A stretch of 64,000 nt of DNA from Pseudomonadota bacterium. Lineage in GTDB: Bacteria; Pseudomonadota; Gammaproteobacteria; Burkholderiales; Ferrovaceae. A program made the translations under genes and the position numbers. The notes under the pieces are model-generated. The model made no database searches and was not told the DNA's origin. It saw only the letters and a program-made list of their open reading frames with translations. The stretch spans positions 313 to 64,312 of the forward strand of contig JAGWIJ010000004.1 of the NCBI GenBank assembly GCA_028873535.1. The letters are read 5' to 3'. Below, one piece after another: positions 265-21,904 of this stretch (the first letter of the stretch is position 1; each line of letters starts with the position of its first letter).

Positions 265-3200
265 ATGCAACACCTGGCCTATCCAGGCACACGAAAGTGG
301 CCGATGATTGCCGCTGCCGTTGCTGCCGTGCTGTTCACGGACGTCAATGTATTTGCCGGGCCGGGTATTGCGCCGGTCTACAGCAAGAACGCCGCGCCGC
401 CGCCCGCTGCACCTGATATCGCGGCGCCGACCTACTTCGCCAACAGCCCGCTGGGTCTGCGCCCCGACCTGATCGGCGGCGCCGGCGCGCCTGGAATCAA
501 CACCGGCGTGGCCATGCGCAAGTTCGTCGATACCCTGCCGGGTGTCGCCGGCTGGGCGCCGACCACCACCATCGGCACCGGCAACATCGGCGGTGTCGCG
601 CCCAAGTACATCCCGGTGGCCGTGCCCAAGACCTGGCCGGCCGACGGCGCCGACTACTACCATCTGGCCATCGTCGAAGCCAGCGAACCCCTGCATACCG
701 ACCTGCCCAAGGCCACCACGCTGCGCCTGTACGTGCAGATCGAGGAGCCGGGCGAGACACCGACGCCAGCCGGCTCGCTGCACGTGCCGCTGTACTACCC
801 GAACGGCACCGCAATCACCCTGCCGGATGGCAATGGCGTCCAGCAGCCGGTGTACGGCTACGACACGCCGCACTACGACGGTCCGATCGTGACCAGCACG
901 CGCAACAAGCCGGTGCGCATCAAGTACTCCAACCTGCTGCCGATCGGCGGTGCGCTCGATGTCTTCGGCAACGGCGTCCCGGGCCGCAACGGCGACCTGT
1001 TCCTGCCGGTCGACGCCACCCTGCCGGGCGGCGCACTGCAGCAGAACCGCGTCGACATCCATCTGCACGGCGGCGTGACGCCCTGGATTTCGGACGGCAA
1101 CCCGCACCAGTGGACCATCCCGGTGGGTGACCCGCGCTTCGGCCTGGTGACCCAGGCGGCCATCACCAATGCCGGCGGCGGCTACAGTGCTGCCCCGGTG
1201 GTGGCCATCGATGCGCCGCAGTCGGTGGCGGTGGCCACGGCCACGGTCGGCTCGACCGCCACTGCGGTCGGCGCCGTGACGGCGCTCAATGTCAGCAATG
1301 CCGGCGCGTTCTACACCGCGGCCACGCCGCCCGCCGTGACGCTGGCGGCGCCGCCCGGACTGGCTGCCGGCGCTGCCGCGCCGGTGGCGGCCTCGGCGAC
1401 TGCCACGGTTGCCAGCGGCAAGGTCGCGACCATCAGCGTGCCCGCTGGTGGTGGTGGCATCGGTTACCCGATCGCGCCGACGCCGGTGGTGTCGGCGCCG
1501 ACGCCGTCCGTCAATGCCACAGCCACTGCCACCCTGGGCGTGGCTGGTGCCAAAGGCGCCACGGTCACGGGCCTGGTACTCGGCGTCGCCACCCCCAACG
1601 TCGGCTACGCCACCGCTCCGGCGGTGAGCATCGGCGCGCCGGCACCCGCGGTCGCGGCCCGCCCGGCGCTCGCCGTGGTGGCCAGCAATGGCAGCCTGAG
1701 CCTCAGCAATCCGGCCAACTTCGGCTATTGGACGGCCCCGGCCGCGCCTGCGCTGCCGGCCCCGAACGCCGCCGTGAATGCCACCGTGACCGGTGCCACG
1801 TTGTCGGTCAATGCCGTCACCGGCAGCCCGCAGCTGGCCACCATCACCGGCCTCAATGCGGCCAACTTCGGCTACTGGCCGGGCACCAACCCGGTCGTGA
1901 CCATTGCCGCGCCGGCGTACACGCCGACCCAGGCCAAGGTCACCAACAATCTCAAGATTTCGACCACGCGCGGCGCCGCCACCGGCACCGTGCTGGCCAG
2001 CGCCGGCAACGCCGGCTACTGGCTGAGGGTGCCGAGCAGCAATGCCAGCAGCGTGGTCAGCGTGTCGGCGCCGCCGGCCAATGTGCAAGCCAACGGCACG
2101 GCCACCGTCGGCCCCAACGGCACCATCACCGCGATCACCCTCGGTGCTGCAGGTCAGGGCTACTTCTCCGGCGCCGGCACCGTCACTGCCACCCTGCCGG
2201 CTCCGGCTGCCGCTGTCACCGCCACGGCCAGCGCCACGCTGAATGCCGGTTCGCTGACCCTCGCGGTCGGCAATGCCGCCACCAACTGGGGCTATTTCAC
2301 GGCACCGCTGGTGACCCTGAGCGGCGGTACCCATGGCGCCGGCACCATCACCGCCACGGCCACCGTGAGCAATGGTCGGGTCACCGCGATCACCTACACC
2401 GGCACCGCCGTCTGGTCGGCGGCGCCGACCGTCAGCATCGCTGCGGCACCCGCCTCGGCCGCAGCCCGGATCAGCGTGATCGCTGCCACCGGCAGCGTTC
2501 CGGCCGTCAGCACCGCCGCCGCGCCGACCGGCAGCTACACCCGTCTGCTCAGCGCCGGCGCCGGCTACGCGCCGAACACCACCATTCCCATCACCTTCAG
2601 CGCACCCAACATCGTTCCGGCAAACGCGGTGGTCACCCCGACCATCGGCACCGGCATCAACGCCGGCCGCATCATCGGACTGGTGCTGAGCGGCGGCGGC
2701 GCGGGCTACGTGACCCCGCCGGTGGTGAGCATCGTCGCGCCGGTTGCCAACCAGACCGCCAGCGCGGCGCTGGTCATGAGCAATGGCAAGATCACCGGCT
2801 TCACCATCAGCGGCGGCGCCAACTACACCACGGCGCCCAAGGTGACGATCAGCGCTGCGACCAAGGGTACCCAGGCCACCTTGACCGCCACGGTCGACGG
2901 GCTGGGCCACCTGAGCTATGCCCTGGCCAACCCGGGCACCGGCTATGCCACGGCACCTGCGCTGGCAGCACCGGCGCCGGTGGCCAGCGTGACGGCAACG
3001 GCCACGGCCAGCGTCAACGCCAGCGGCAGCGTGACCGGCTTCACGGTGACCAACGCCGGCACCAACTACGTGCCGGGCAGCGTGCCGACGGTGACCGTTG
3101 GCAACGCCACGCTGGCCGTGCCGGCCACCGCCACGGCCACCCTCAACCCTGCCACCGGTTCAGTCACCGGCTACACGGTGACCAATGCCGGCTTCGGCTA

Positions 3201-6200
3201 CTGGACGCCACCAACGGTGACGCTGGCGGCCCCGCCGACGCCGATCCAGGCCACCGCCACCGCCAATGTGGCGGCTGACGGCAGCATCGGCGGCTTCACC
3301 ATCACCAACCCGGGCCAGGGCTACACCCTGCCGCCCAGCGTGACCGTGGCCTGGCCCGCGGTGGCAGTGCAGGCCACGGCCAGCGCCACCACCACCGCAG
3401 GCGCCCTGTCCAGCGTGGCCATCACCAACCCCGGCGGCGGCTACACCGCGACGCCCGGCTTCACCATCACCGATGTGAGCGGCAAGGGCGGCATCATCAA
3501 CGGCCTCGTCAGCACGCCGGTCGGGCCGAGCTTCCGCAATGTGCCGGACATGGTCGGCAATCTGGCCGCCGCGCAGGCGCCGGCGTTCTACGTGCCGCCG
3601 GCGACGGGTGAGGGCACGCTGTACTACACGAATCAGCAGACCGGCCGGATCATGTGGTACCACGACCATACCTCGGCGATGACGCGTCTCAACGTCTATG
3701 CCGGCCTGGCCGCACCGTATCTGATCCAGGATCCGGCCATCGATCCCGTGCTGCCGAACGCCGTTCCGGCGGCAGGCGCGCCGGCGCCGGCACTGCAGGG
3801 GCTGGTGCCCGCGGAAACCATCCCGCTGATCTTCCAGGACAAGACCTTCGTGCCGCAGGACATCAACCTGCAGGATGCCTACTGGGACCAGGCGCACTGG
3901 GGCAGCTACGGCGACCTGTGGTTCCCGCATGTCTACGAGACCAACCAGAATCCCTCCTTCCTGCGTAACCTGTCCAACCTGGGGCGCTGGGACTGGGGTC
4001 CCTGGTTCGCGATCGTCTACCCGGCGCAGTACGCGCTGCCGACCGGCCAGTATGGCGACGTGACCACCACGCCGGAAGCCTACCAGGACACCATCGTGGT
4101 CAATGGTGCGGCCTTCCCGACCATCACGGTCGAGCCGCGCGCCTATCGCCTGCGCATGCTCAATGCCGCCAACGACCGTTTCATGAACATCGGCTTCTAC
4201 CTGGCCGATCCGGCCCAGGTGTCGGCGGATGGACGTGCCAACACCGAGGTCAAGACCGGTCCGGCCGGAACCGCGCAGCCGGGGACGGTGGCGGGCGCTG
4301 CGCCCAACGTGTTCCAGTCCAGCGCCACCAGCCAGGCCTATACGCCGTGGCCGAGCGATGGCCGCACGGTGCCAATGCCGACCGAAATGGGTCCGCCGAT
4401 GTTCCAGTTCGCCAACGAAGGCGGCCTGCTGCCCAACTGGGTGGAAGCGGATCCGGTTCCGGTCAGCTTCGACTACAACCGGCGCAGCGTCACCGTGCTG
4501 AACGTGTCGCAGAACAACGACTTCACCCAGTTGTGCTACCCCGAGTGCCACGGCATGTACCTGGGGCCGGCCGAGCGTGCCGACGTGGTGGTCGACTTCT
4601 CGCACTACGCGGGCAAGACGCTGATCCTGTACAACGACGCGCCGGCACCCAACCCTGGCTACGATTCGCGCATCGACTACTACACCAACGACGACCCGGT
4701 CTATCCTGGCACCATCAACTACGCCAATGGTGGCGCACCGAACACGGCGACCGGTTTCGGTCCCAACACGCGCACCATGATGCAGGTGGTGGTTGGCACG
4801 GTGCAGAACGCGGCGGGTAGCCATCCGATCGACTACACGGCGGCCATCAGCCCCACGCCGGCGACCTATATCGATCCGGTCACCGGTGTGCAGAGCGCCC
4901 TGCAAGCCTGGGATCCGAACGCCCTCGGCGCCGGCAAGGTGCTGGGCACGCTCACCACCACGGCACGCGGCCCCCTGCAGACCCTGTATGCGGCTACCCA
5001 GGCGGCGCCGATCGTCGGCGAGTCGGCGTACAACAACGCGCTCAACCAGAGCTATGTCGACCAGTACGGCGGCATGCACCTGGCCTCGGCGGACCAGCCG
5101 GTGTTCTATGTCACCGATCCGGGCCCGCTGACCCTGACCGGCGTGACCCTGGTCGGCACCACGGCCAACGTCAATCCCTCGGGCGTGGCGACCAACGGCA
5201 GCAACCCGAACAACGGCAAGGGTGTCGGTACCGGCTACACGGTCGCGCCGACCGTGGTGCTGTCGCCGCCCAACTGCGTGGCGGGTCCGACCTGCGTGCA
5301 GGCCACCGCCACGGCCACGGTGGCCAACGGCCAGGTGACCGGTGTGACGCTGAACAACGTCGGTGCCGGCTATACCGAGGTGCCGTTCGTGAACTTCGTG
5401 TCGAGCGGCAACCTGACCACCATCTCGGTCAGCAACGGCGGTGCCGGCTACAGCCCGGCCAGCCCGCCCACGGTGACCCTGACCGGTGGCGGCGCCGGTG
5501 CGGCCGGCACGCCGCCGGCGGTCCCGGCCACTGCGGTGGCCACGGTGAGTGCAGCCGGCGTCGTGACCGGCATCACCATCGTCACGCCGGGCTCCGGCTA
5601 CGCCGTGGCGCCCACGGTCACCATTGCCGCGCCCAGCGTCGGCACGGGTGCCAGCGCCAGCGCGGCGCTCAGCGCCACCGGCACGGTGGCGGGTCTGACC
5701 CTGGGCGCCGGCGGCACCGGCTACACGGTGGTGCCGGCGGTGTCGATCCAGGCGCCGGCTGCCTCGGTACCGGCGGCAGCAAGCGCCGCGGTGCCGGTGG
5801 CCGGTGGCGGCATCACGCTGACCACCACCTCGGTGGGCACCAACTACAGCGTGGCGCCCAACGTCACCATCAGCGCACCGCCCAGCGCGACTGCGACCGC
5901 GACCGACACCACCACCTTCCCGGGTTATGGCGCCGGCACCTACGCAGGCCTGGTGCTCAATGCCATCACCGTGACGGGCGGTGGCGCCGGCTATGCGGCC
6001 GCACCTGCCGTGACCATCACCGACCTCGGCGCGACCGGGACCGGTGCTGCCGCCACGGCGACGGTCAGCAATGGCGTGGTCACCGGCATCTCGGTGACCG
6101 CAGTGGGCTCCGGCTACAAGGGTCCGCTTGCGATCAGCGTCGCTCCGCCTGCCGGCCCCTTCACCCCGGCAACGGCGACCGCCACGGTGGTGACCCCCGG

Positions 6201-7572
6201 CGCGGTGCAGCTGACCTTGAGCAATCCGGGTTCGGGCTATGTGGTTGCGCCCAGCGTGACCATCGATCCGCCGCCGGTGGCTACCCAGGCCACGGCCACG
6301 GCCACGGTGGCCAATGGCGCGGTGACCGGACTGACCCTGACCGGCGCCGGCAGCGGCTACACCACGCCGCCGCAGGTGACCCTCAGCAATCCGGCGGCGA
6401 CCAACGCCACGGCCATCGCAGCCGTGACGGGTGGTGGCTACGGCGCGGAAGCCGTCGCTGTGGCGTCCACCACCAAGGTGTTCGCCGTGCCGACGACGGC
6501 GCCGCAGGCGGCCAATTCGGTGCCCTTCACGCTGCCGGCCCTGCCGCCGGGCGGTGTGGTCGGACGCCTGATGAACCCGGCGATCCAGGAACTCTTCGAG
6601 CCCTACTACGGCCGCATGAACGCGACCCTGGGTATCGAGATGCCCTACCAGTCGCTGGCCGTCCAGACCACCGTGCCGCTGAACTTCGTCGACCCGGATA
6701 CCGAGACGATGGAGCCCAATACCGTGCAGATGTGGAAGATCACCCACAACGGCGTGGACGCACATCCGGTGCATTTCCATCTGGTCAACGTGCAGGTGGT
6801 GAACCGGGTGGGTTGGGACGGTACCGTCAAGCCGCCTGAGGACAACGAGATCGGCTGGAAGGAAACGGTCAAGATGAACCCGCTGGAGGATGTCATCGTG
6901 GCGATGAAGGCGGTGCTGCCGCAGGTGCCGTTCGGCGTGGACCATAGCGTCCGCCTGGACGATCCCTCGCAACCGCTGGGCGTGCCGGGTGGCTTCACCC
7001 AGTTCTCGACCCTGGGCCTGAACGGCCAGATCGGGGCGGGTGCCGCAGCGGTCTATCCGCCCAGCATGGTGCCGGTCGCCACGGCCGCAGCGCCGGGCAT
7101 CGGCCAGCCAGCCACCATCGTCAACTCGATCGAGAACTACGACAACGAGTACATCTGGCACTGCCACATCCTGGGGCATGAAGAGAACGACTTCATGCGG
7201 CCGTTCGTGTTCACCACCAGCCCGACGGTGCCTGCTGCCGCGACGGTGACGGCGGTGGGCCAGGCTGCCGCCGCAGGCGCGATCACGGTCAGTTGGACCG
7301 ACCCGACGCCGACCGGTGCCCAGGCCAGCGTGCCGGCAACCTACGGCAATCCGGCCAACGAGCTGGGCTTCCTGCTGCAGCGTTCGACCAGCCCCAACGG
7401 ACCCTGGTTGACGGTGGCGAAGGCGCCTGCCAATGCGGTCAGCGCGGTCGACCCGCAGTACAGCCCGACCACCGCCGGAACGCAGTACTACTACCAGGTG
7501 GTGGGCTACAACGTGGCCGGCAACGGCCCGGGCTCCTCGCAGAGCGTCGCGTCGAGCATCGTCGCCAAGTAA
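265..7572 (+). CDS. Giant secreted multicopper oxidase (2,435 aa), MofA-like, with two internal repeat arrays and an Fn3-like C-terminal domain
   Basis: ATG at 265 lies 5 nt after AAGGAG (254-259). The N-terminus MQHLAYPGTRKWPMIAAAVAAVLFTDVNVFA looks like a Sec signal peptide. All four MCO copper motifs occur in canonical order: HLHGG (nt 1060-1074), WYHDH (3655-3669), HPVHFH (6763-6780), HCHILGHEENDFM (7159-7197). The C-terminus ITVSWTDPTP...YYYQVVGYNVAGNG resembles Fn3. Confidence 0.85.
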   Translation: MQHLAYPGTRKWPMIAAAVAAVLFTDVNVFAGPGIAPVYSKNAAPPPAAPDIAAPTYFANSPLGLRPDLIGGAGAPGINTGVAMRKFVDTLPGVAGWAPTTTIGTGNIGGVAPKYIPVAVPKTWPADGADYYHLAIVEASEPLHTDLPKATTLRLYVQIEEPGETPTPAGSLHVPLYYPNGTAITLPDGNGVQQPVYGYDTPHYDGPIVTSTRNKPVRIKYSNLLPIGGALDVFGNGVPGRNGDLFLPVDATLPGGALQQNRVDIHLHGGVTPWISDGNPHQWTIPVGDPRFGLVTQAAITNAGGGYSAAPVVAIDAPQSVAVATATVGSTATAVGAVTALNVSNAGAFYTAATPPAVTLAAPPGLAAGAAAPVAASATATVASGKVATISVPAGGGGIGYPIAPTPVVSAPTPSVNATATATLGVAGAKGATVTGLVLGVATPNVGYATAPAVSIGAPAPAVAARPALAVVASNGSLSLSNPANFGYWTAPAAPALPAPNAAVNATVTGATLSVNAVTGSPQLATITGLNAANFGYWPGTNPVVTIAAPAYTPTQAKVTNNLKISTTRGAATGTVLASAGNAGYWLRVPSSNASSVVSVSAPPANVQANGTATVGPNGTITAITLGAAGQGYFSGAGTVTATLPAPAAAVTATASATLNAGSLTLAVGNAATNWGYFTAPLVTLSGGTHGAGTITATATVSNGRVTAITYTGTAVWSAAPTVSIAAAPASAAARISVIAATGSVPAVSTAAAPTGSYTRLLSAGAGYAPNTTIPITFSAPNIVPANAVVTPTIGTGINAGRIIGLVLSGGGAGYVTPPVVSIVAPVANQTASAALVMSNGKITGFTISGGANYTTAPKVTISAATKGTQATLTATVDGLGHLSYALANPGTGYATAPALAAPAPVASVTATATASVNASGSVTGFTVTNAGTNYVPGSVPTVTVGNATLAVPATATATLNPATGSVTGYTVTNAGFGYWTPPTVTLAAPPTPIQATATANVAADGSIGGFTITNPGQGYTLPPSVTVAWPAVAVQATASATTTAGALSSVAITNPGGGYTATPGFTITDVSGKGGIINGLVSTPVGPSFRNVPDMVGNLAAAQAPAFYVPPATGEGTLYYTNQQTGRIMWYHDHTSAMTRLNVYAGLAAPYLIQDPAIDPVLPNAVPAAGAPAPALQGLVPAETIPLIFQDKTFVPQDINLQDAYWDQAHWGSYGDLWFPHVYETNQNPSFLRNLSNLGRWDWGPWFAIVYPAQYALPTGQYGDVTTTPEAYQDTIVVNGAAFPTITVEPRAYRLRMLNAANDRFMNIGFYLADPAQVSADGRANTEVKTGPAGTAQPGTVAGAAPNVFQSSATSQAYTPWPSDGRTVPMPTEMGPPMFQFANEGGLLPNWVEADPVPVSFDYNRRSVTVLNVSQNNDFTQLCYPECHGMYLGPAERADVVVDFSHYAGKTLILYNDAPAPNPGYDSRIDYYTNDDPVYPGTINYANGGAPNTATGFGPNTRTMMQVVVGTVQNAAGSHPIDYTAAISPTPATYIDPVTGVQSALQAWDPNALGAGKVLGTLTTTARGPLQTLYAATQAAPIVGESAYNNALNQSYVDQYGGMHLASADQPVFYVTDPGPLTLTGVTLVGTTANVNPSGVATNGSNPNNGKGVGTGYTVAPTVVLSPPNCVAGPTCVQATATATVANGQVTGVTLNNVGAGYTEVPFVNFVSSGNLTTISVSNGGAGYSPASPPTVTLTGGGAGAAGTPPAVPATAVATVSAAGVVTGITIVTPGSGYAVAPTVTIAAPSVGTGASASAALSATGTVAGLTLGAGGTGYTVVPAVSIQAPAASVPAAASAAVPVAGGGITLTTTSVGTNYSVAPNVTISAPPSATATATDTTTFPGYGAGTYAGLVLNAITVTGGGAGYAAAPAVTITDLGATGTGAAATATVSNGVVTGISVTAVGSGYKGPLAISVAPPAGPFTPATATATVVTPGAVQLTLSNPGSGYVVAPSVTIDPPPVATQATATATVANGAVTGLTLTGAGSGYTTPPQVTLSNPAATNATAIAAVTGGGYGAEAVAVASTTKVFAVPTTAPQAANSVPFTLPALPPGGVVGRLMNPAIQELFEPYYGRMNATLGIEMPYQSLAVQTTVPLNFVDPDTETMEPNTVQMWKITHNGVDAHPVHFHLVNVQVVNRVGWDGTVKPPEDNEIGWKETVKMNPLEDVIVAMKAVLPQVPFGVDHSVRLDDPSQPLGVPGGFTQFSTLGLNGQIGAGAAAVYPPSMVPVATAAAPGIGQPATIVNSIENYDNEYIWHCHILGHEENDFMRPFVFTTSPTVPAAATVTAVGQAAAAGAITVSWTDPTPTGAQASVPATYGNPANELGFLLQRSTSPNGPWLTVAKAPANAVSAVDPQYSPTTAGTQYYYQVVGYNVAGNGPGSSQSVASSIVAK
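1150..3480 (+). repeat. Coding repeat array 1 inside the MCO: about 18 degenerate modules with core N-x-G-x-G-Y-x3-P-x-V-[TS]-[IL]-x2-P
   Basis: Counted by eye in the translation, e.g. ITNAGGGYSAAPVVAIDAP, LSNPANFGYWTAPAAP, VLSGGGAGYVTPPVVSIVAP, VTNAGFGYWTPPTVTLAAP, ITNPGQGYTLPPSVTVAWP, ITNPGGGYTATPGFTITD. The array lies between copper motif 1 and motif 2. Boundaries are approximate. Confidence 0.75.
5210..6470 (+). repeat. Coding repeat array 2 inside the MCO: about 10 modules of the same type
   Basis: Examples: GVGTGYTVAPTVVLSPP, LNNVGAGYTEVPFVNF, VSNGGAGYSPASPPTVTL, IVTPGSGYAVAPTVTIAAP, LGAGGTGYTVVPAVSIQAP, LSNPGSGYVVAPSVTIDPP, LTGAGSGYTTPPQVTLSNP. Modules are often preceded by ATATATV-x-NG-x-VTG. 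The array lies between the second and third cupredoxin domains. Boundaries are approximate. Confidence 0.75.
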
Positions 7573-7588
7573 TCGTCGCAGGCAGTAC

Positions 7589-7615
7589 GGCAGGGCTCGC
7601 CGCCTGAGCCCTGCC
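7589..7615 (+). terminator. GC-rich hairpin 17 nt after the MCO stop (possible attenuator or partial terminator, no T-tract)
   Basis: GGCAGGGCTC-gccgcct-GAGCCCTGCC forms a 10-bp perfect stem. Two further hairpins follow at 7631-7644 (GGACC-GCAA-GGTCC) and 7692-7709 (GCGGCGCC-ca-GGCGCCGC). Confidence 0.35.
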
Positions 7616-7753
7616 GGCAGCACCCGGACTGGACCGCAAGGTCCGGTCGCCGCACCGGGCGGCGAGTCCTTCCCGGCCCCGAATATCCGGGGCGGCGCCC
7701 AGGCGCCGCTCCATCCCCGCTTCCTGCCTCACTTGTTCCGGAGTTGCACGTTC

Positions 7754-8500
7754 ATGAAAGCATTGCTCAGAATGTCCTTGCTCGTGGCCTGCCTGAATGC
7801 CGCGCTGGCCTGTGCTGCGGATGCCACGGCCACCCCGGCGGCCGCGCCTGCCAGCGCCGGCACGCCGGCCTTCACCAGCCAGAAGGACCGCATCAGCTAC
7901 GCCGTGGGCGTCTCCACCGGCCGCGCCCTGCGCACGGCCGACGGCGCCGAAGTCAATCTGGACAGTCTGGTGCGCGGACTGCGCGATGCGCTCGAAGGGC
8001 GCAAGCTGCAGATCCCGGACCGCCAACTGTCCGAATTGATGGGCGAGTTCCAGCAGACCCTGCGCCAGAAGATGGCGGCCTCGCGCGGCCACGCCATCAT
8101 CGAGAATCGCGCTGCTGCCGAGGCCTTCCTGGCCCAGAACAAGGTCAAGGAAGGCGTGGTCACGCTGGAAAGCGGCGTGCAGTACCGCATCCTGGCGACC
8201 GGCCAGGGCCCGATGCCGCAGGAGTCCGACGAGGTGCTGGCCAAGTACCACGGCGCCCTCCTGAACGGACAGGAGTTCGACGCCACCGAAGAAGGCCATC
8301 CGGCACGCATGCGCGTGTCGCAGCTGATCCCGGGCTGGCGCGACGCGCTCAAGCACATGCCGGTCGGGTCGCACTGGCAGATTTTCGTGCCGCCCCAGCT
8401 CGCCTACGGTGAGCGCGGCGTTGGCGCCGAGATCGGCCCCAACGAATTGCTGGTGTTCGACGTCGAACTGCTGTCGGCCAAGCCGGCCGCGCTCGACTGA
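7754..8500 (+). CDS. Periplasmic FKBP-type peptidyl-prolyl cis-trans isomerase (Mip/FkpA-like; MofB-like position)
   Basis: ATG at 7754. Signal peptide MKALLRMSLLVACLNAALACAADA. The FKBP C-domain shows GVQYRILATGQG...VLAKYHGALLNGQEFD...QLIPGWRDAL..MPVGSHWQIFVPPQLAYGERG...IGPNELLVFDVELL. Confidence 0.85.
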   Translation: MKALLRMSLLVACLNAALACAADATATPAAAPASAGTPAFTSQKDRISYAVGVSTGRALRTADGAEVNLDSLVRGLRDALEGRKLQIPDRQLSELMGEFQQTLRQKMAASRGHAIIENRAAAEAFLAQNKVKEGVVTLESGVQYRILATGQGPMPQESDEVLAKYHGALLNGQEFDATEEGHPARMRVSQLIPGWRDALKHMPVGSHWQIFVPPQLAYGERGVGAEIGPNELLVFDVELLSAKPAALD

Positions 8501-8511
8501 GTTCGCAGCCG

Positions 8512-10566
8512 ATGCCTGCCGTCGTGCCGTTCTTGCGCGTGTTGCCGCAGCGCCAACGCAGCACGCCGCTGCTGCCGCAGTGGGCGCTGTGCGGCTGCCT
8601 GCTGCTGGCCGCCGTGATGCTGCGGCCGGCACCGGCGCTGGCGGCGTCCGCCAGCGAGAGCGCCGCTGCCATCCAGGCGGCGGTGGCGCGCTCGGCCCAG
8701 GCACCGGGTACGCCGCCGGCTGCGGTGGCGGCAGCGCCTGGCGCGACGGGTCTGGCGGTGGCCGAAGCAGCGCCGTTGACGGCGGCCGACCGTGCACGTT
8801 ATCTGGCGCAAGGTCGACGCCTGTACCGCGACGGCGTGCGCCACGACGGCTCGCAGGTGCAGGCCTCACGCGTCGGTGCCGCTGCCGGTCAGTGGCAGGC
8901 GCCGGCCTGCGTGAGCTGCCACCGGCCCAGCGGCATGGGCACGGTGGAAGGCAACATCCAGGTGCCGCCGATCAACGGCCGCGCCCTGTTCGCGGGCGAA
9001 CGTCTGCGCGAGCGCGTGATCGTCTCGCTTGATCCGCGCCGTGGCCGCCTGTTCAATCCTTCGCACGCTCCCTACGATGCGGCCTCGCTGCTGCAGGCGG
9101 TGGCGGCCGGCGTGCATGTCAGTGGCCGCGCCATGAATGCGCTGATGCCGCGCTACGCCGTGGATCGAGAAGACATCCAGGGCTTGATGATCTATCTGTC
9201 GACCCTGTCCGACGCCGACGCGCCTGGCGACCGCGACGGTCACCTGCGCTTTGCCACCGTGATCACGCCCGAGGTGACGCCGGAGCGGCGCGCGATCTTC
9301 CTGGAGAATCTGCGCGCGGCCTTCGACCAGAAGGAAGGCGGTACGCTGCCCGGCAAGCGCCACATGGCGAGCGCCGCCGAGATGATCTATCGCACCGAAC
9401 GCCACTGGGACCTGGACGAATGGCAGTTGTCGGGGCCGGCGTCGGAATGGATGGCGCAGATGGATGCGCTGTACGCACGCCAGGCAGTGTTCGCGCTGGT
9501 GTCCGGGCTGGGCGAGGGCGAGTGGTCGCCGGTCCAGGCCTGGTGCGAGGCCCGCCAGGTGCCGTGCTGGTTTCCCAGCGTCACGGCGCCGCCGCCGGCC
9601 GGCGACACTTTCTATTCGCTCTATTTCTCGCGCGGCGTGCTGCTCGAAGCCGACGTGATGGCCACGACGATCGGGCACTGCGCCGCGGGCAGCCGGGTGG
9701 TGCAGTGGGTGGCCGACGATGCTGCGGCACGCGCGGCGGCGGCGCGCCTGGCCGCTGACCTGGCGGCCTCGGACTGTCAGGTGGTCGCGCAGGACGAGCC
9801 GGGTGCCGACGACATCCTGGTGCTGTGGCAGCGCGCCGATGGGCTGGCGGCGCTGGGGGCGCCACCTGCGGCGCGGCGGATCCTGGCCTCCGGCCAGCTC
9901 GCCGGCGACGAGCGCGCGCCCCTGCCGGCGGCCTGGCGGCCGCGCACCGAACTCGTGGTGACGCGCGAACTGCCGGCGCGTCGTGGTCAGAATCTGGCCA
10001 CCTTGCACTCCTGGCTGGCGATCCGTGGGCTGGCGCTGCGCGACGAGGCGCTGCAGTCCGAGGTTTTTTTCGCCTTCAACTATCTGCAGAACACCCTGAC
10101 CGACATGCTGGACAACGTGTATCGCGATTTCCTGGTCGAGCGTGGCGAGTCGATGCTCAACCGTCGCGAAGCGCAGCGTGCCGAGGAAGAGACCATCACG
10201 CGCATGCAGGGCCATCCGCCGGCGCCCAGCGTGGCGGCGGCCTCACGGCTGGCGCCGGGCGCGATCTTCGGCGCCGATCCGGATGGGCCGCTGGCCCAGC
10301 GCAACACGCCGGCCTACCTGTCACGCAGCGGCACCACCATCTATCCGCATCTGGGATTGGCGCCCGGCCAGCGCTTCGCCTCGCGCGGCGCCTATCTGGT
10401 CAGGCTGTCAGCCGCGGGCGCTGCCGACCCGGTGATGCAAGCCAGCGCCTGGATCGTGCCGGACATTGTCGGCAGCGAAATCGCGGGCCGTCTCGCCGCT
10501 GCTGCACCGGCTGCGGATGCGCTTTCTTCACACCACCCCATCGGAGTTGCTGCCCATGCGCCGTGA
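8512..10566 (+). CDS. Secreted mono-haem cytochrome c domain fused to a large (~500 aa) uncharacterised domain (MofC-like position)
   Basis: A single CxxCH haem-binding motif (ACVSCHRPSGMG) lies in a typical context (GRRLYRDG...). The N-terminus is hydrophobic with ALA|AS. The rest is unassigned and may be periplasmic-binding-protein-like. The gene starts 11 nt after the FKBP stop. Confidence 0.6.
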   Translation: MPAVVPFLRVLPQRQRSTPLLPQWALCGCLLLAAVMLRPAPALAASASESAAAIQAAVARSAQAPGTPPAAVAAAPGATGLAVAEAAPLTAADRARYLAQGRRLYRDGVRHDGSQVQASRVGAAAGQWQAPACVSCHRPSGMGTVEGNIQVPPINGRALFAGERLRERVIVSLDPRRGRLFNPSHAPYDAASLLQAVAAGVHVSGRAMNALMPRYAVDREDIQGLMIYLSTLSDADAPGDRDGHLRFATVITPEVTPERRAIFLENLRAAFDQKEGGTLPGKRHMASAAEMIYRTERHWDLDEWQLSGPASEWMAQMDALYARQAVFALVSGLGEGEWSPVQAWCEARQVPCWFPSVTAPPPAGDTFYSLYFSRGVLLEADVMATTIGHCAAGSRVVQWVADDAAARAAAARLAADLAASDCQVVAQDEPGADDILVLWQRADGLAALGAPPAARRILASGQLAGDERAPLPAAWRPRTELVVTRELPARRGQNLATLHSWLAIRGLALRDEALQSEVFFAFNYLQNTLTDMLDNVYRDFLVERGESMLNRREAQRAEEETITRMQGHPPAPSVAAASRLAPGAIFGADPDGPLAQRNTPAYLSRSGTTIYPHLGLAPGQRFASRGAYLVRLSAAGAADPVMQASAWIVPDIVGSEIAGRLAAAAPAADALSSHHPIGVAAHAP

Positions 10567-11122
10567 ACACATCGCCATTGCCCTGCTGGGCGTGCCCCTG
10601 TTGCTGTCCAGCCTGCCTGGCCAGGCGGCCAGCGTGTATGCCTGTCCGGGACCCGATGGTTCGACAGTGGTCAGCGATACCGCCAGCAGCAGCGCCTGCG
10701 AACTGATCGGCGACGACGGTCGCGCCGCTGCGCCCGCAGTCCCGGCCCCGAGCGCCATCGCGATGCCGGGCGCTGCTGCCGCCGAGGGTGCCGGTGTGCC
10801 GCACGCCGGCGATGCTCAGGCGGCCGCGACGCCGGCCGCAGGTGCCGGCCGCGCGCCGGAGGCCGGCGACCGGCCGCCGGCCGCAGCGCTGGTGGTCCCG
10901 GCGGTGGCGGTGACGCCACGTTCGGGTGCCCCGGCGGCGGCGCGCAGCGACGTGGTGGTGGCTCCCGAGGCCGCGCCGCAGCGCAGCGAATACGGCAGCA
11001 TGATGCGCTCGGACACTGATCTGGCGGGCAACCCGCTGCCGTCCGGTCCGACCTCGGCGCAGGGGCGCCGCTACAAGATGATCGATCGCGCCACCTACCA
11101 GCAGGCCGTCGAAGGCAACTGA
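10556..11122 (+). CDS. Small secreted protein, DUF4124-like N-terminus, Ala/Pro-rich linker, conserved C-terminal RRYKMxDRAxY motif (paralog A)
   Basis: ATG at 10556 overlaps the upstream stop by 11 nt. Signal peptide MRREHIAIALLGVPLLLSSLPGQAAS, then VYACPGPDGSTVVSD. The C-terminus is YGSMMRSDTDLAGNPLPSGP..GRRYKMIDRATY. Confidence 0.6.
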   Translation: MRREHIAIALLGVPLLLSSLPGQAASVYACPGPDGSTVVSDTASSSACELIGDDGRAAAPAVPAPSAIAMPGAAAAEGAGVPHAGDAQAAATPAAGAGRAPEAGDRPPAAALVVPAVAVTPRSGAPAAARSDVVVAPEAAPQRSEYGSMMRSDTDLAGNPLPSGPTSAQGRRYKMIDRATYQQAVEGN

Positions 11123-11248
11123 ACGCCGCCGTGGCGGCGGCGCGCCGGCGCGTCCGCCTCAAGTCGGGCCGCCGGCTGCCGTTGTCGTATCCAGGGGCAG
11201 TCCGCTTGGGGGCTGTCCGAGCGATGACCTTCGACTGGAGACGACCCG

Positions 11249-11656
11249 ATGAAACTCCGCAATGCAGTCCTGCTGACCGTGCTGGCGACCGCACTCAGCG
11301 ATGGCGCCTGGGCTGGCGTCTATGCCTGTAGCGATGCCCTGGGCAACACCACCCTTGCCGATACGCCGGTGTCCGGCATGCCTTGCGACAAGCTTGGCGA
11401 CGACGATCCTGGCGCAGCGCCCGGCGCGCCGGCAGCGCAGCCGGCGCCGGAAGTGGCGGCCGCCGTGCTGACGCCCAAACCGCAACCGAAGCCAGCCCCG
11501 GCTGCGCTGCCCCCGGCGGCGGACTACGCCGTCATGATGCGCACCGACTCCGACCTGGAGGGAAACCCCCTGCCGGGCGGTCCTTTGCAGGCGCGCGGCC
11601 GCCGCTACAAGATGCTGGACCGTGCGAGCTACATGGCGCAGAACGGCATTCAGTAG
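11249..11656 (+). CDS. Small secreted protein, paralog B of the preceding gene
   Basis: Signal peptide MKLRNAVLLTVLATALSDGAWAG, then VYACSDALGNTTLADTP. The C-terminus is YAVMMRTDSDLEGNPLPGGP..GRRYKMLDRASY. GGAGA lies upstream of the ATG. Confidence 0.6.
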   Translation: MKLRNAVLLTVLATALSDGAWAGVYACSDALGNTTLADTPVSGMPCDKLGDDDPGAAPGAPAAQPAPEVAAAVLTPKPQPKPAPAALPPAADYAVMMRTDSDLEGNPLPGGPLQARGRRYKMLDRASYMAQNGIQ

Positions 11657-11941
11657 GTGCTGTGCCGGCGGTGCTGTGACGGAGTGCAGCGCTGCCGACG
11701 ATCTGGACAGTGTCCAGTTCCGCCCGCGGGTTACACGCAGTTTCAGTCGGCCGCACCCAAACCCGCAGCCTGCCTTTATACTGCCTGCAGAGGGCGTCGA
11801 CGCCCCGATAACAACAGGATCCGTGCGCGCTTTCGATGGATCGGCGGATCCGAAAAAAATCAGCAGGGACGCGTTTGTCCCCCCGGGCCATCCCCGGGGC
11901 AGGTAAGCCATTACAGACTGCAGGCAGGAGAGGAACACACC

Positions 11942-15069: not shown

Positions 15070-15573
15070 CTAGCCGAGATCGACGATGCGCGTGTGCAGG
15101 ATGCGGTCGTGCAGGAACTGGCGATCGCGGTCGAACAGCGCCCACAGGAAGTGCGCGCCCAGCAAGCCGAAGCCGGCCCAGACCAGCACCATGCGCAGCA
15201 GGGCCTGGTCGATCGCCAGCGGACGTCCGTCGGCGCGGCACAGCCGGATGTGCCAGGTCTTCATGGGCAGGGTCTGGCCGCCGTGCAGCCAGAACCAGAT
15301 GAAGTAGGCGCTGCTCACGGTCATCATCCAGGCGCGCGTGAAACGCCGGAAGTCGTCATCCTGCAGGCCGGCAGCGTGCGCCAGTGGCACCAGCACGAAG
15401 CCGGCCAGCACCAGGGTGCCGACCAGCAGCAGGCCTTCGTAGAGCGCGCACAGCAGGCGCGGCAGCACGCCGGCCGACGGCAGTGCCGCCAGCGCGGCGC
15501 CTGACAGGCTGGTGGGACCCGGCGCGGCTGCCGCGTCGCTGGATGGGCCTTGCGTGCCCTGGCTGGGGGGCAT
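15070..15573 (-). CDS. RDD family membrane protein
   Basis: Contains TM segments and the C-terminal signature ALFDRDRQFLHDRILHTRIV. Its ATG shares one nt with the upstream stop (TGATG). Confidence 0.65.
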   Translation of the reverse strand: MPPSQGTQGPSSDAAAAPGPTSLSGAALAALPSAGVLPRLLCALYEGLLLVGTLVLAGFVLVPLAHAAGLQDDDFRRFTRAWMMTVSSAYFIWFWLHGGQTLPMKTWHIRLCRADGRPLAIDQALLRMVLVWAGFGLLGAHFLWALFDRDRQFLHDRILHTRIVDLG

Positions 15574-16055
15574 CAGTGCGGGACTTCGTCGCGCTCGGCA
15601 CGGCCGCGCGCAGCGGCATCGGCGGCACCGGCTGCAGCGGCATCGGCCGCAGCGGCGCCCTCAGCAGAGGGGGCCGGCGCATCACTGCTGCGCCAGCGCT
15701 GCTTGATCTCGTCGCGCTTTTCCTTGGGCAGGGCGTGAAACTTGCGGTAGGTGGCGCGCGCTTCATCGCGCGAATCGTGCGGCAGGCGCGCCCAGCCCGG
15801 CAGGCGGGCGCGGAAGCGCTGCTGCTCGGCCGGGGTCAGCTGTGGATAGTGCTTGACGGCGTTGAGCAGGCGCTGGCGCTGGTAAGGCGGCATGCGCTCC
15901 CAGTCCGGTGCCAGCGGCGTCAGGATCTGCTTCTGCTCCGGCGACAGCGACTCCCAGCGCAGGCCGCCGTCGGCGGCGCCGGCCGCCTGCGCCGGCACGG
16001 TCGCGCTGCACAGGCAGACGAGCAGGGCCAGGATCAGTGCGAACTGTTGACCCAT
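15573..16055 (-). CDS. DUF3106-like secreted protein
   Basis: Has a signal peptide and repeated W..L.PEQ..L / R...W..LP motifs (WESLSPEQKQIL, LTPAEQQRFRARLPGWARLP, LPKEKRDEIKQRW). The family name is from memory. Confidence 0.55.
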   Translation of the reverse strand: MGQQFALILALLVCLCSATVPAQAAGAADGGLRWESLSPEQKQILTPLAPDWERMPPYQRQRLLNAVKHYPQLTPAEQQRFRARLPGWARLPHDSRDEARATYRKFHALPKEKRDEIKQRWRSSDAPAPSAEGAAAADAAAAGAADAAARGRAERDEVPH

Positions 16056-16429
16056 TCCTTGAAATCCGGGTGGACGAAGGCGTGCAGGGGCAGTTCGCTG
16101 GACAGCATCTTGGCGTCCAGCAAGCCCTGTTCGTCGTCGTCGTCGTTGGCCTGTTGCCAGTAGAAGGCCCCCGCCAGCAGCGCCAGCAGGCTCAGGCCGA
16201 TGAACAGCATGCGCGTATGGTGCGGATGCTCCCCGTCGCCCCCCCCCAGGTGCAGGGCCAGCGTTCCGTTGCGGTGACTTGCCACGGCAGCCGGGCGTTC
16301 CGCGGCGCGCACCTTCCCCAAGGCACGCTGACGCGCCTGCTCCAGGCGATTCAGGGTGATACCATCGATCTGTTGGGTGGCAACGTTGAGCCGGTCCCGG
16401 ATCTTTTCAGAAAATTCCTTCTCATTCAT
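16034..16429 (-). CDS. DUF3619-like membrane protein (probable anti-sigma partner)
   Basis: ATG at 16429 overlaps the sigma-factor stop (ATGA). The N-terminus is MNEKEFSEKIRDRLNVATQQIDGITLNRLEQAR, and one TM segment (MLFIGLSLLALLAGAFYW) is present. Confidence 0.55.
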   Translation of the reverse strand: MNEKEFSEKIRDRLNVATQQIDGITLNRLEQARQRALGKVRAAERPAAVASHRNGTLALHLGGGDGEHPHHTRMLFIGLSLLALLAGAFYWQQANDDDDEQGLLDAKMLSSELPLHAFVHPDFKEWVNSSH

Positions 16430-17085
16430 AGCTTTACCCCCCTCGCGCCAAGCATCCCTGCCAGCGCATGAACCGCGCGCGAACAATGGGTCTTCACACT
16501 CCCTTCGGAGCATCCCATTGCCGCTGCGGTCTCGGCCACATCCATCTCTTCCCAGTAACGCAGCAGGAACGCTTCCCGTTGACGCGCCGGCAATCTTTGC
16601 AGCGCGGCCTCGATTTCGGCCAGAGTCTGCTGCTGGTCGACCTGGGCCTCCGGGTTTTCCAGCGGACGCTCTTCCTGCTGGCTCTGGAGCATTTCCAGCA
16701 CGTCGTGTTCTTCGTCGTCGTCCTTGGTGAAGAACGACGAGAACAGGCGCGTCCAGGTGTTGCGCACCTTGGAGCGGCGGAAATGGTCGTTGGTGGCGTT
16801 CTGCAGGATGCGCTGGAACAGCATGGGCAGTTCTTCTGCCGGCCGGTCAGGGTAGCGCTCGGCGAGCTTGAGCATGGCCTCCTGGACGATATCCAGCGCC
16901 GCGTCCTCGTCACGCACCGCATAGAATGCCTGCTTGTAGGCGCGCCGCTCGACACCGGCGAGAAAGTCCGAGAGTTGCTTGTGGGTAGCCAGTTTCTCTT
17001 CCTTGCTGGGCAGTCTCTGGCCGCCGCCCGCCACGGCCGTTCCGGCCGGGCAGGCGGCGGATTTCCGCCACCTTGACCTGCGCAT
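16426..17085 (-). CDS. ECF-type RNA polymerase sigma-70 family factor
   Basis: Region 2 (DAALDIVQEAMLKLAERY...FQRILQNATNDHFRR) and region 4 (LPARQREAFLLRYWEEMDVAETAAAMGCSEGSVKTHCSRA) are present. The start is uncertain: ATG 17085, or GTG 17031, which would clear the ilvI promoter. Confidence 0.8.
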   Translation of the reverse strand: MRRSRWRKSAACPAGTAVAGGGQRLPSKEEKLATHKQLSDFLAGVERRAYKQAFYAVRDEDAALDIVQEAMLKLAERYPDRPAEELPMLFQRILQNATNDHFRRSKVRNTWTRLFSSFFTKDDDEEHDVLEMLQSQQEERPLENPEAQVDQQQTLAEIEAALQRLPARQREAFLLRYWEEMDVAETAAAMGCSEGSVKTHCSRAVHALAGMLGARGVKL

Positions 17086-21109: not shown

Positions 21110-21904
21110 ATGGCTGATCCGATCGGCGATCCCCTGACCGGCGGCCCGCGCCGCCGCGGCATCTACCTGCTGCCCAACCTGTTCACCACGGCGGCGCTGT
21201 TCTCCGGCTTCTACGCCATCGTGCAGTCGATGAACGACGACTTCGTCGGAGCCGCCCAGGCGATCTTCGTCGCCATGGTGCTCGACGGGCTCGACGGCCG
21301 CGTGGCGCGGCTCACGCGCACCCAGAGCGCCTTCGGTGCCGAGTACGACAGCCTGTCCGACATGGTCTCGTTCGGTGCTGCGCCCAGCTTGCTGATGTAC
21401 GAATGGGCGCTGCAGCCGATGGGCAAGCTGGGCTGGCTGGGCGCCTTCGTCTATTGCTGCGGCGCAGCCCTGCGGCTGGCACGCTTCAACACCCAGATCG
21501 GCACCGTCGACAAGCGCTGGTTCGTGGGTCTGCCAAGCCCTGCCGCAGCGGCGCTGATCGCAGGACTGGTGTGGGTGCTGCACGGCGAATACCAGGTGGT
21601 GGGGCGCGATATCCACTGGTTTGCCTGGGGCCTGACCCTGTTCGCCGGGCTGTCGATGGTGTCGAACATCAAGTTCTACAGCTTCAAGGACATCAATCTG
21701 CGCCGCGCCGTGCCCTTCTGGGCGGTGCTGGTGGTGATGCTGGGATTCGTGGTGATCACCATCGACCAGGCGCGGGTGCTGTTCGGACTGTTCGCCGCCT
21801 ACGCCCTGCACGGCTACGTGCTGTGGGCACTGAGCCGGATCGGGCGCTGGCGCCGCGGCCGGCGGCTCAGCCCTGGAGCCGGAAGCTCGCCACGTCGGCC
21901 TTGA
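21110..21904 (+). CDS. pssA: CDP-diacylglycerol--serine O-phosphatidyltransferase
   Basis: ATG at 21110 lies 6 nt after GGAGG. The CDP-alcohol phosphatidyltransferase motif [26 protein letters not shown] is present. Confidence 0.88.

Follow-up and report, generated by a model that had tools for sequence, protein, structure and literature searches.

The mof Locus and Its Genes

The DNA considered here is a stretch of 64,000 nucleotides (in the following called the window) from contig JAGWIJ010000004.1 of assembly GCA_028873535.1, which belongs to an uncultured, high-GC bacterium of the Ferrovaceae (Burkholderiales). Close to its start, five genes on the plus strand encode a very large multicopper oxidase (MCO), a peptidyl-prolyl isomerase, a haem protein and two small secreted proteins, here named S1 and S2. 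The first three correspond to the mofA, mofB (Mip/FKBP-type) and mofC (cytochrome c domain) genes, which form an operon in Leptothrix discophora SS-1 according to PMC8218464 and PMC5566968, where Corstjens 1997 and Brouwers et al. (2000) are cited for it; the original prediction had named this operon, and the literature agrees. The locus is likely to be a mofABC-type envelope oxidase cluster that has been extended by tandem duplication of a small accessory gene.

All five open reading frames (ORFs) are present on the plus strand at the positions that had been claimed for them: mofA at 265-7572, mofB at 7754-8500, mofC at 8512-10566, S1 at 10556-11122, and S2 at 11249-11656. The spacers between mofA and mofB and between S1 and S2 are 181 and 126 nt long, respectively. 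The two close junctions described earlier were both found, that is, 11 nt between the mofB stop codon and mofC, and an 11-nt overlap between the S1 gene, whose ATG is at 10556, and the end of mofC at 10566. Four of the genes have a recognisable ribosome-binding site; AAGGAGA (253-259) precedes the mofA ATG at 265 by 6 nt, and GGAG is found before 7754, 10556, and 11249. No obvious ribosome-binding site was seen before mofC at 8512. Inspection of the N-termini revealed a signal peptide in each of the five products.

The window has a G+C content of about 70%, and long spurious ORFs are therefore abundant in it. The G+C content at third codon positions (GC3) is 0.80-0.87 for the five ORFs, and 0.80-0.82 for the two small ones. 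The same five genes, four of them with identical lengths, are found on an independently assembled contig from another sample (Logan SRR21686664), here called L001. When the two loci are compared, the ratio of non-synonymous to synonymous substitution rates (dN/dS) is 0.08 for the MCO, 0.06 for the isomerase, 0.19 for the cytochrome, and 0.36 for both S1 and S2. These low values show that purifying selection acts on all five genes, which are thus genuine and not ORFs that arose by chance.

The Multicopper Oxidase MofA

MofA has 2435 amino acids (aa), including a signal peptide at aa 1-31. All four copper motifs (HxHG, WxHxH, HPxHxH, and HCHxxxHxxxxxM) are present in the canonical order, starting at aa 266, 1131, 2167, and 2299. 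Motif A (HLHGG, aa 266-270, positions 1060-1074) aligns to the HLHGG of the laccase CotA, and the CotA alignment also supports motif B (WYHDH, aa 1131-1135, 3655-3669), motif C (HPVHFH, aa 2167-2172, 6763-6780), and motif D (HCHILGHEENDFM, aa 2299-2311, 7159-7197). The protein matches the Pfam family Cu-oxidase_2 (E 1.7e-9), and its best match among solved structures is CotA/bilirubin oxidase (PDB 1GSK and 2XLL). The alignment with CotA (1GSK) is collinear and consists of six segments that include every copper ligand motif, which identifies MofA as a three-domain MCO of the CotA/bilirubin oxidase type. For comparison with L. discophora, the genomic copy of the mof genes in strain CCM 2812 (L002) was used. 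BLASTP against MofA of this strain gave three segments with 37-39% identity (E 8e-122, 1e-85, and 1e-44), the best of them 38% identical, and together they span all the cupredoxin parts. By its sequence, the first gene thus encodes a MofA-family, CotA-like MCO with a full set of copper ligand motifs.

While CotA has 513 aa, MofA contains about 1900 aa more, chiefly in the form of two repeat arrays. The repeat unit is about 40 aa long with the approximate consensus QATATATVxxGxVTGxTxTNxGxGYTxxPxVTIxxP, and a hidden Markov model (HMM) of it finds 26 copies, 16 of them at aa 293-1070 (insertion 1, positions 1141-3474) and ten at aa 1633-2044 (insertion 2, positions 5161-6396). The repeats are placed in two surface loops. 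Insertion 1 (about 780 aa) separates copper motifs A and B within cupredoxin domain 1, where it replaces a CotA loop of about 15 residues (123-138), and insertion 2 lies between cupredoxin domains 2 and 3. Both arrays are rich in Ala, Thr, Gly, and Val and are nearly uncharged, with 18 charged residues out of 778 in insertion 1 and six out of 412 in insertion 2. MofA contains 239 prolines in all, several in each repeat. The repeat has no sequence match in Pfam, NCBIfam or PDB. The repeats are old, with diverged DNA sequences, and they are reproduced in L001. An assembly artefact was considered as their source and rejected, since there is no tandem repeat at the DNA level and the protein encoded by L001 is of equal length.

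The distance from motif A to motif B is 865 aa both in the window and in L001, compared with 61-116 aa in the 45 other MofA relatives in which both motifs could be located, none of which has the insertion of about 780 aa inside the domain. MofA of the window thus departs from the short spacing of its family; the departure is one of architecture, and the homology is unbroken. The protein is 790 aa longer than MofA of L. discophora, with which it shares the four copper motifs and the presence of repeats between cupredoxin domains 2 and 3. Indeed, shorter versions of the second array are found both in L. discophora and in some other relatives. After motif D there are 137 residues in the window protein, making up one short C-terminal module, while L. 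discophora MofA continues for about 380 aa. The C-terminal region aligns to its L. discophora counterpart, and its match to the fibronectin-III family fn3 (E 0.1, 13.3 bits) is below the cut-off of 25 bits. Size expansion is common in the MofA family, but it is usually C-terminal, after motif D. The relatives encoded at L056 378-9113 and L076 322-9120 are about 2900 aa long, with about 1800 residues past motif D.

The Isomerase MofB and the Haem Protein MofC

The 248-aa product of the second gene matches Pfam FKBP_N and FKBP_C (E 2.8e-23 and 1.9e-23) and is 45% identical to L. discophora MofB (BLASTP, E 1e-61). The earlier description of it as an FKBP/Mip-type isomerase with a signal peptide is thereby borne out, and by its sequence it is a standard periplasmic prolyl isomerase of the Mip/FkpA type.

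MofC has 684 aa and is 44% identical to L. discophora MofC over about 600 residues (BLASTP, E 3e-135). As had been noted from the sequence, it contains exactly one CxxCH haem c attachment motif, CVSCH at C133-H137 (8908-8922). In an alignment with 112 homologues this motif is invariant; C133, C136, H137, and M212 are all conserved without exception, and Met212 is likely the sixth haem ligand. The most conserved stretch is FCExxxVPCWFPS, which contains two nearly invariant cysteines. An AlphaFold model based on the 112-sequence alignment, with a predicted local distance difference test score (pLDDT) of 83.5 and a predicted template modelling (TM) score of 0.82, displays an N-terminal class-I cytochrome c domain, a two-lobed alpha/beta body, a helical hairpin, and a small C-terminal beta domain. 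Foldseek matched the body to type-I periplasmic binding proteins (E about 1e-8, target-normalised TM scores of 0.5-0.65), among them LivJ/LivK, aromatic-acid binding proteins, and the amino-terminal domains of glutamate receptors. The approximately 500 aa that had been called unassigned in the original prediction thus have a recognisable fold, and the periplasmic-binding-protein part of MofC-like proteins had already been noted (PMC5566968). According to the model, the third gene encodes a MofC-family fusion of a predicted mono-haem cytochrome c with a type-I periplasmic-binding-protein (Venus-flytrap) fold. The last 34 residues (aa 651-684, 10462-10566) form a low-confidence tail past the conserved WIVP at which the family otherwise ends. 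This tail was seen only in the window and in its 86% identical relative, and the overlap with the start of S1 falls within it.

Distribution and Composition of mof Clusters

A scan for MofC relatives, using one genome per species, showed that 445 species genomes encode such a protein. Eighty of these loci were fetched, and the counts given below refer to them. A mofB gene adjacent to mofA or mofC is found in 78 of the 80, and a mofA gene in 58; in 21 of the remaining 22, less than 4.5 kb separates mofC from the upstream end of the contig. The other one, L022 (chromosome OY968775.1 of an uncultured betaproteobacterium), stands alone among the fetched loci in that the full 10 kb on the upstream side of mofC is available and contains no MofA match. 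It has a mofB gene 1.5 kb upstream of mofC and may represent a mofBC pair detached from the oxidase gene. The carriers include Leptothrix, Sphaerotilus, Rubrivivax, Ideonella, Rhodoferax, Gallionella, Sideroxydans, Ferriphaselus, and Ferrigenium, and further Methylococcales/Crenothrix, Azonexus, Steroidobacteraceae and others.

The original prediction proposed two computational tests of whether the locus belongs to the mofABC system, one by similarity to the L. discophora proteins and one by conservation of the gene neighbourhood. The similarity is significant for all three proteins (38, 45, and 44% identity for MofA, MofB, and MofC), and the genes are co-conserved in the surveyed loci. The assignment to the mofABC system therefore withstood both tests. 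The L. discophora cluster resembles that of the window in having the three genes in identical order and on the same strand, an isomerase with both FKBP_N and FKBP_C, and a MofC with a single CxxCH and a body resembling periplasmic binding proteins. Downstream of mofC the two differ. The L. discophora locus continues with a gene for a SCO1/SenC-type copper chaperone and one for an exported protein of 83 aa, while the window has two S genes and no SCO1. SCO1/SenC genes are found in 49 of the 80 other loci. By sequence, then, the locus belongs with the mofABC clusters, and it departs from the L. discophora locus in the intradomain insertion, the missing SCO1 gene, and the tandem pair of S genes.

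Homologous clusters have been described from L. cholodnii, Ferriphaselus sp. R-1 and the Gallionellaceae of culture KS (PMC5566968), and from Rubrivivax sp. A210 (PMC8218464). As in the window, the mofABC core of these clusters is followed at its 3' end by one or two small genes, and every product is predicted to be exported. For strain A210 the likeness is one of description; two loci from Rubrivivax metagenome-assembled genomes (L004 and L044) had no match to the S family, and L004 has a SCO1 gene.

The Small Secreted Proteins S1 and S2

S1 (188 aa) and S2 (135 aa) had been proposed to be paralogues. Their C-terminal 38 aa are indeed 66% identical (E 8e-18), and their N-terminal regions, each containing a cysteine hairpin, are weakly similar. 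The family that they define, here called the S family, has a signal peptide, a short hairpin (YxCxDxxGxxxLxxxPxxxxCE), an Ala/Pro-rich linker of variable length, and a C-terminal module (YRDxM...NPAxxRRY[L/K]MxxRxxY), which in S1 reads GRRYKMIDRATY. The hairpin cysteines are replaced in about half of the members. The pattern [YRD]xM...RRY[K/L]MxxRxxY defines the family, and both window proteins fit it.

Neither protein has a significant match in Pfam or NCBIfam, and word-indexed searches found only the window itself, its 76% identical relative, and one fragment of 58 aa. An S-family HMM was built from S1, S2, their orthologues in L001, and a weak tblastn match in L061, and it was searched against all six-frame ORFs of the fetched loci. 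It identified members in 12 other genome loci, all of them on the same strand as mofC. In ten of these the S gene lies immediately downstream of mofC (L007, L025, L028, L034, L036, L037, L045, L054, L058, and L061), in L062 it lies about 700 nt downstream of it, and in L079 it follows mofB. A regular expression for the C-terminal motif matched 15 of 16,729 ORFs, namely the two of the window, the two of L001, ten in further loci, and one false match. Only 15 matches at E <= 1e-3 came from an exhaustive HMMER search that covered 1.84 billion representative proteins, and about 11 of these are small proteins with the S architecture. A reverse search with a narrow S alignment in metagenomes gave one contig of 1.2 kb (Ga0075019_10179195, here L083), in which a lone S gene (P0125) comes after the 3' end of mofC, with downstream sequence that is shared with the window. 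L083 represents a relative of the window organism, and its single S gene dates the duplication to the lineage comprising the window and L001.

The S family is optional, being found at about 13 of 82 loci, or about 15% of the mof loci. As judged from the sequences, it is linked to mofC wherever the context is available, with the one gene after mofB noted above. The duplication was found only in the lineage of the window. The proposal that the mof operon had been expanded by two small secreted proteins thus stands as far as the two-copy state is concerned, which is specific to this lineage; the extension as such is not unique, as a single copy is found elsewhere. S genes coexist with SCO1, in the order mofC-S-SCO1, in L036, L037, L045, L058, and L062. 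No description of the family was found in the searchable literature, and neither the family nor its association with mofC appears to have been reported before.

Could S1 and S2 be spurious ORFs, or hitch-hikers unrelated to the oxidase? Their low-complexity, Ala/Pro-rich middle parts, the lack of significant Pfam and NCBIfam matches, and the near absence of relatives in word-based searches would fit such a view. Against it stand their dN/dS of 0.36 relative to L001, a GC3 value typical of the cluster, good Shine-Dalgarno sites, the relatives of the same architecture found by the exhaustive search, a position after mofC that is kept across distant lineages, and a motif that gave only one false match among all ORFs scanned. 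Selection, ribosome-binding sites, relatives and conserved position effectively exclude this explanation, and it is regarded as extremely improbable.

Another explanation is that the S proteins help to secrete the giant oxidase or to anchor it in the envelope, rather than being its catalytic partners. The basis for this is the N-terminal hairpin, which in S1 matches DUF4124 (PF13511) with 17.3 bits and E 0.006. E-values of 0.01 or lower were obtained for two of 13 and three of eight S-family relatives, the best being 2e-6. The only experimentally studied DUF4124 protein found in the literature is the Neisseria factor TfpC, which stabilises type IV pili, and the paper describing it considers that DUF4124 proteins might take part in type IV pilus or type II secretion systems. 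In Candidatus Ferrigenium straubiae KS (L032 11766-12416) inspection showed a DUF4124-like N-terminus fused to an SLT lytic transglycosylase in the same position after mofC, so that the place of the S protein is taken by a different protein with the same N-terminal module; there is also a secretin gene near the L. discophora locus. However, the S1 match is below the Pfam cut-off of 22 bits, S2 has no match, the hairpin cysteines are lost in about half of the family, the conserved part is the C-terminal RRY motif, which is absent from TfpC-type proteins, and the window contains no secretion genes. By analogy with TfpC such a helper function may be imagined, but it is thought to be unlikely.

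A variety of small secreted proteins is encoded at the 3' ends of mof clusters. The 83-aa exported protein of L. discophora (L002 12690-12941), which has a C-terminal Cys pair and is encoded after SCO1, was considered as an S homologue and rejected, the sequences being unrelated. It is also found in L026, L033, and L074, and a similar gene is present at L023 2623-2856. The gaps between mofC and SCO1 in other loci were checked for diverged S genes, and none were found; they contain a toxin-antitoxin pair or a second FKBP gene, or else no ORF that is convincing as a gene. An antitoxin/toxin-like gene pair occupies L020 11834-12344 in a Gallionellaceae metagenome-assembled genome, and a second FKBP/Mip-type isomerase gene lies directly 3' of mofC at L067 4709-5413 and L048 5890-6588.

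Leader, Spacers, and Flanking Genes

The mofA leader (1-264) is about 95% identical to that of L001 from about position 40 of the window. In the corresponding region of L001 (1048-1753) the leader is preceded by about 270 bp that are extremely AT-rich, in a genome with 70% G+C. This stretch is probably a promoter or regulatory region, and the window begins just inside it; the mofA promoter is probably located further upstream, beyond the edge of the window.

The GC-rich spacer between mofA and mofB (7573-7753) is predicted to form stable hairpins without a U tract (minimum free energy -85.4 kcal/mol, z = -3.3). It is identical to that of L001 at 172 of 181 positions, compared with a synonymous divergence (dS) of about 0.26 in the flanking genes, and may be a conserved element for RNA processing, stability or attenuation. 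The S1-S2 spacer (11123-11248) is also structured (-72.7 kcal/mol, z = -2.85) and lacks a U tract; it is less conserved in relation to L001. No Rfam family was found in the leader or in the cluster. Scans for sigma-70 promoters and intrinsic terminators gave no more sites than in shuffled sequence, and are for this reason uninformative about the operon structure; the same terminator scan found no terminator-like site at the ends of the cluster genes. The 11-nt spacer, the 11-nt overlap and the lack of terminator-like sites at the gene ends suggest that the genes may be co-transcribed.

The cluster consists of five genes and ends at 11656. A terminator-like hairpin with a T run is found on the minus strand at 11865-11882, between S2 and the gene for acetyl-CoA synthetase, where no minus-strand gene ends. 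Acetyl-CoA synthetase is followed by LptG and the ilv genes, all named from their translations, and then by other housekeeping genes; those from position 21867 onward were scanned against Pfam. Between lptG and ilvB, 4-5 kb past the cluster, inspection of translations showed an ECF-type sigma factor, a putative anti-sigma factor, and a small secreted protein on the minus strand (15573-17085). In L001 the upstream neighbour of mofA is a divergent fumarase gene.

Possible Function of the Cluster

A mechanism can be outlined for a mofABC-type envelope oxidase cluster extended in this way. MofA would be exported by Sec and folded in the periplasm with the assistance of MofB, which is plausible because the oxidase has so many prolines. 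It would also be loaded with copper there, as is presumably done by the adjacent SCO1 in other clusters; since there is no SCO1 at this locus, the copper chaperone for MofA would be encoded elsewhere. MofA would then be displayed at the cell surface or released beyond the outer membrane, where the uncharged repeat arrays could serve as spacers or as arms that bind matrix, sheath material or mineral. The type-1 copper would take single electrons from Mn(II), Fe(II) or a phenolic substrate, and the trinuclear centre would carry out the four-electron reduction of O2 to water. S1 would be made in a fixed proportion to MofC through translational coupling. The S proteins would most likely be adaptors whose conserved, basic C-terminal motif lets them dock onto MofC or MofA in the course of maturation or export; the placement of this motif on a flexible linker fits such a function.

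An MCO requires no external electron carrier, yet MofC is strictly co-conserved with MofA, and this argues for another role of the haem protein. MofC might be an electron donor, a redox-sensing or ligand-binding maturation factor, or a protein that handles copper. In the mechanism outlined above it would be a periplasmic redox or assembly partner and not the catalytic electron acceptor.

Several points weigh against this interpretation. The universal presence of MofC is unexplained by a simple oxidase model. No SCO1 match was found anywhere in the 64-kb window or in L001. The repeats resisted fold prediction, as an AlphaFold model of four repeats, based on a pseudo-alignment of the protein's own repeats, had a pLDDT of 37.6 and was unusable. 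The role suggested for the S proteins is deduced from gene position and architecture. As for the substrate, Fe(II) oxidisers and methanotrophs commonly carry mof homologues. Finally, L. discophora is reported in a survey (bioRxiv 10.1101/2022.11.10.515945) to have retained Mn oxidation after its mofA had been deleted. The cluster may be a metal-oxidation module, as the original prediction suggested, and the activity of MofA itself is disputed.

The last two points also bear on the possibility that the cluster is a dedicated Mn(II)-oxidising module, in which MofA would be the Mn(II) oxidase, MofC would carry electrons, and the small proteins would be part of the machinery that forms Mn oxide. 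MofA was identified from a Mn-oxidising fraction of L. discophora, according to PMC8218464, PMC5566968 and bioRxiv 10.1101/2022.11.10.515945. The Mn oxidiser Rubrivivax sp. A210 has a five-gene mof operon (PMC8218464), and the homology of the window proteins to MofA, MofB, and MofC of L. discophora is clear. However, Mn oxidation reportedly persisted without mofA, and the cluster is widespread in Gallionellaceae, Sideroxydans, Ferriphaselus, Ferrigenium, and methanotrophs, both in the present survey and in PMC5566968. Nor does the window contain any manganese-specific pointer, with no Mn riboswitch or other Rfam match. A dedicated Mn(II)-oxidising module is hence seen as possible but rather less than probable.

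It has also to be considered whether MofC passes periplasmic electrons, from Fe(II) oxidation or from the quinol pool, to MofA, which would then be a terminal oxidase at the cell surface or a component of extracellular electron transfer, as suggested for OmpB of Geobacter sulfurreducens. The strict co-conservation of a haem protein with an oxidase that does not need one for turnover speaks for this, as does the enrichment of the cluster in genomes of iron oxidisers. The mof clusters have moreover been grouped with OmpB, which is required for the reduction of Fe(III) oxide (PMC5566968). As described in the same paper, the OmpB cluster (GSU1394-1398) resembles that of the window in encoding an outer-surface MCO homologous to MofA and a distant MofC homologue, and it also has a SCO1-type chaperone and a module of the fibronectin-III type in OmpB; it differs in having no mofB and in being implicated in Fe(III) oxide reduction rather than oxidation (PMC5566968). 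MofC, with its single haem and large periplasmic-binding-protein fold, is on the other hand unlike known electron conduits, the cluster encodes no outer-membrane porin or multihaem partner, and there is no evident route by which a periplasmic MofC could reach a secreted MofA. Such an outlet for electrons is accordingly judged doubtful, and the envelope oxidase cluster with MofC as a redox or assembly partner is the preferred interpretation.

The Mnx complex of Bacillus consists of a large Mn-oxidising MCO, MnxG, and two small subunits, MnxE and MnxF. To our knowledge, MnxE and MnxF have no other known homologues. The combination of a large MCO with two small proteins is shared with the window, as an analogy only, since there is no sequence relationship. 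Unlike these two subunits, which are compact and bind copper, S1 and S2 consist largely of linker and have a single Cys pair besides the basic C-terminal motif.

Implications

MofA-type oxidases are candidate catalysts of manganese and iron oxidation in the environment, and their function has been a puzzle since the 1990s. The mofABC triad is found in hundreds of species, and it therefore represents a widespread envelope system that is worth solving. The S proteins might serve MofA-type oxidases as a previously unrecognised, dedicated subunit or as a maturation factor, with a function like that of MnxE and MnxF, or else be partners of the MofC flytrap, and the array of about 780 aa might at the same time be a functional, hitherto undescribed design for binding mineral or matrix; that both hold together is considered improbable. 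The rare S family is present also in a cultured isolate, Actimicrobium sp. CCI2.3, whose locus L062 has the gene order mofA-mofB-mofC-S-SCO1 and which offers an experimental handle. The giant insertion within a domain is a test of how much loop expansion a cupredoxin trinuclear copper site tolerates, and it hints at how such oxidases may be held in sheaths or on mineral surfaces. The basic classification is unchanged by these findings: the cluster is of a known kind, with a new candidate component for research on manganese and iron oxidation.

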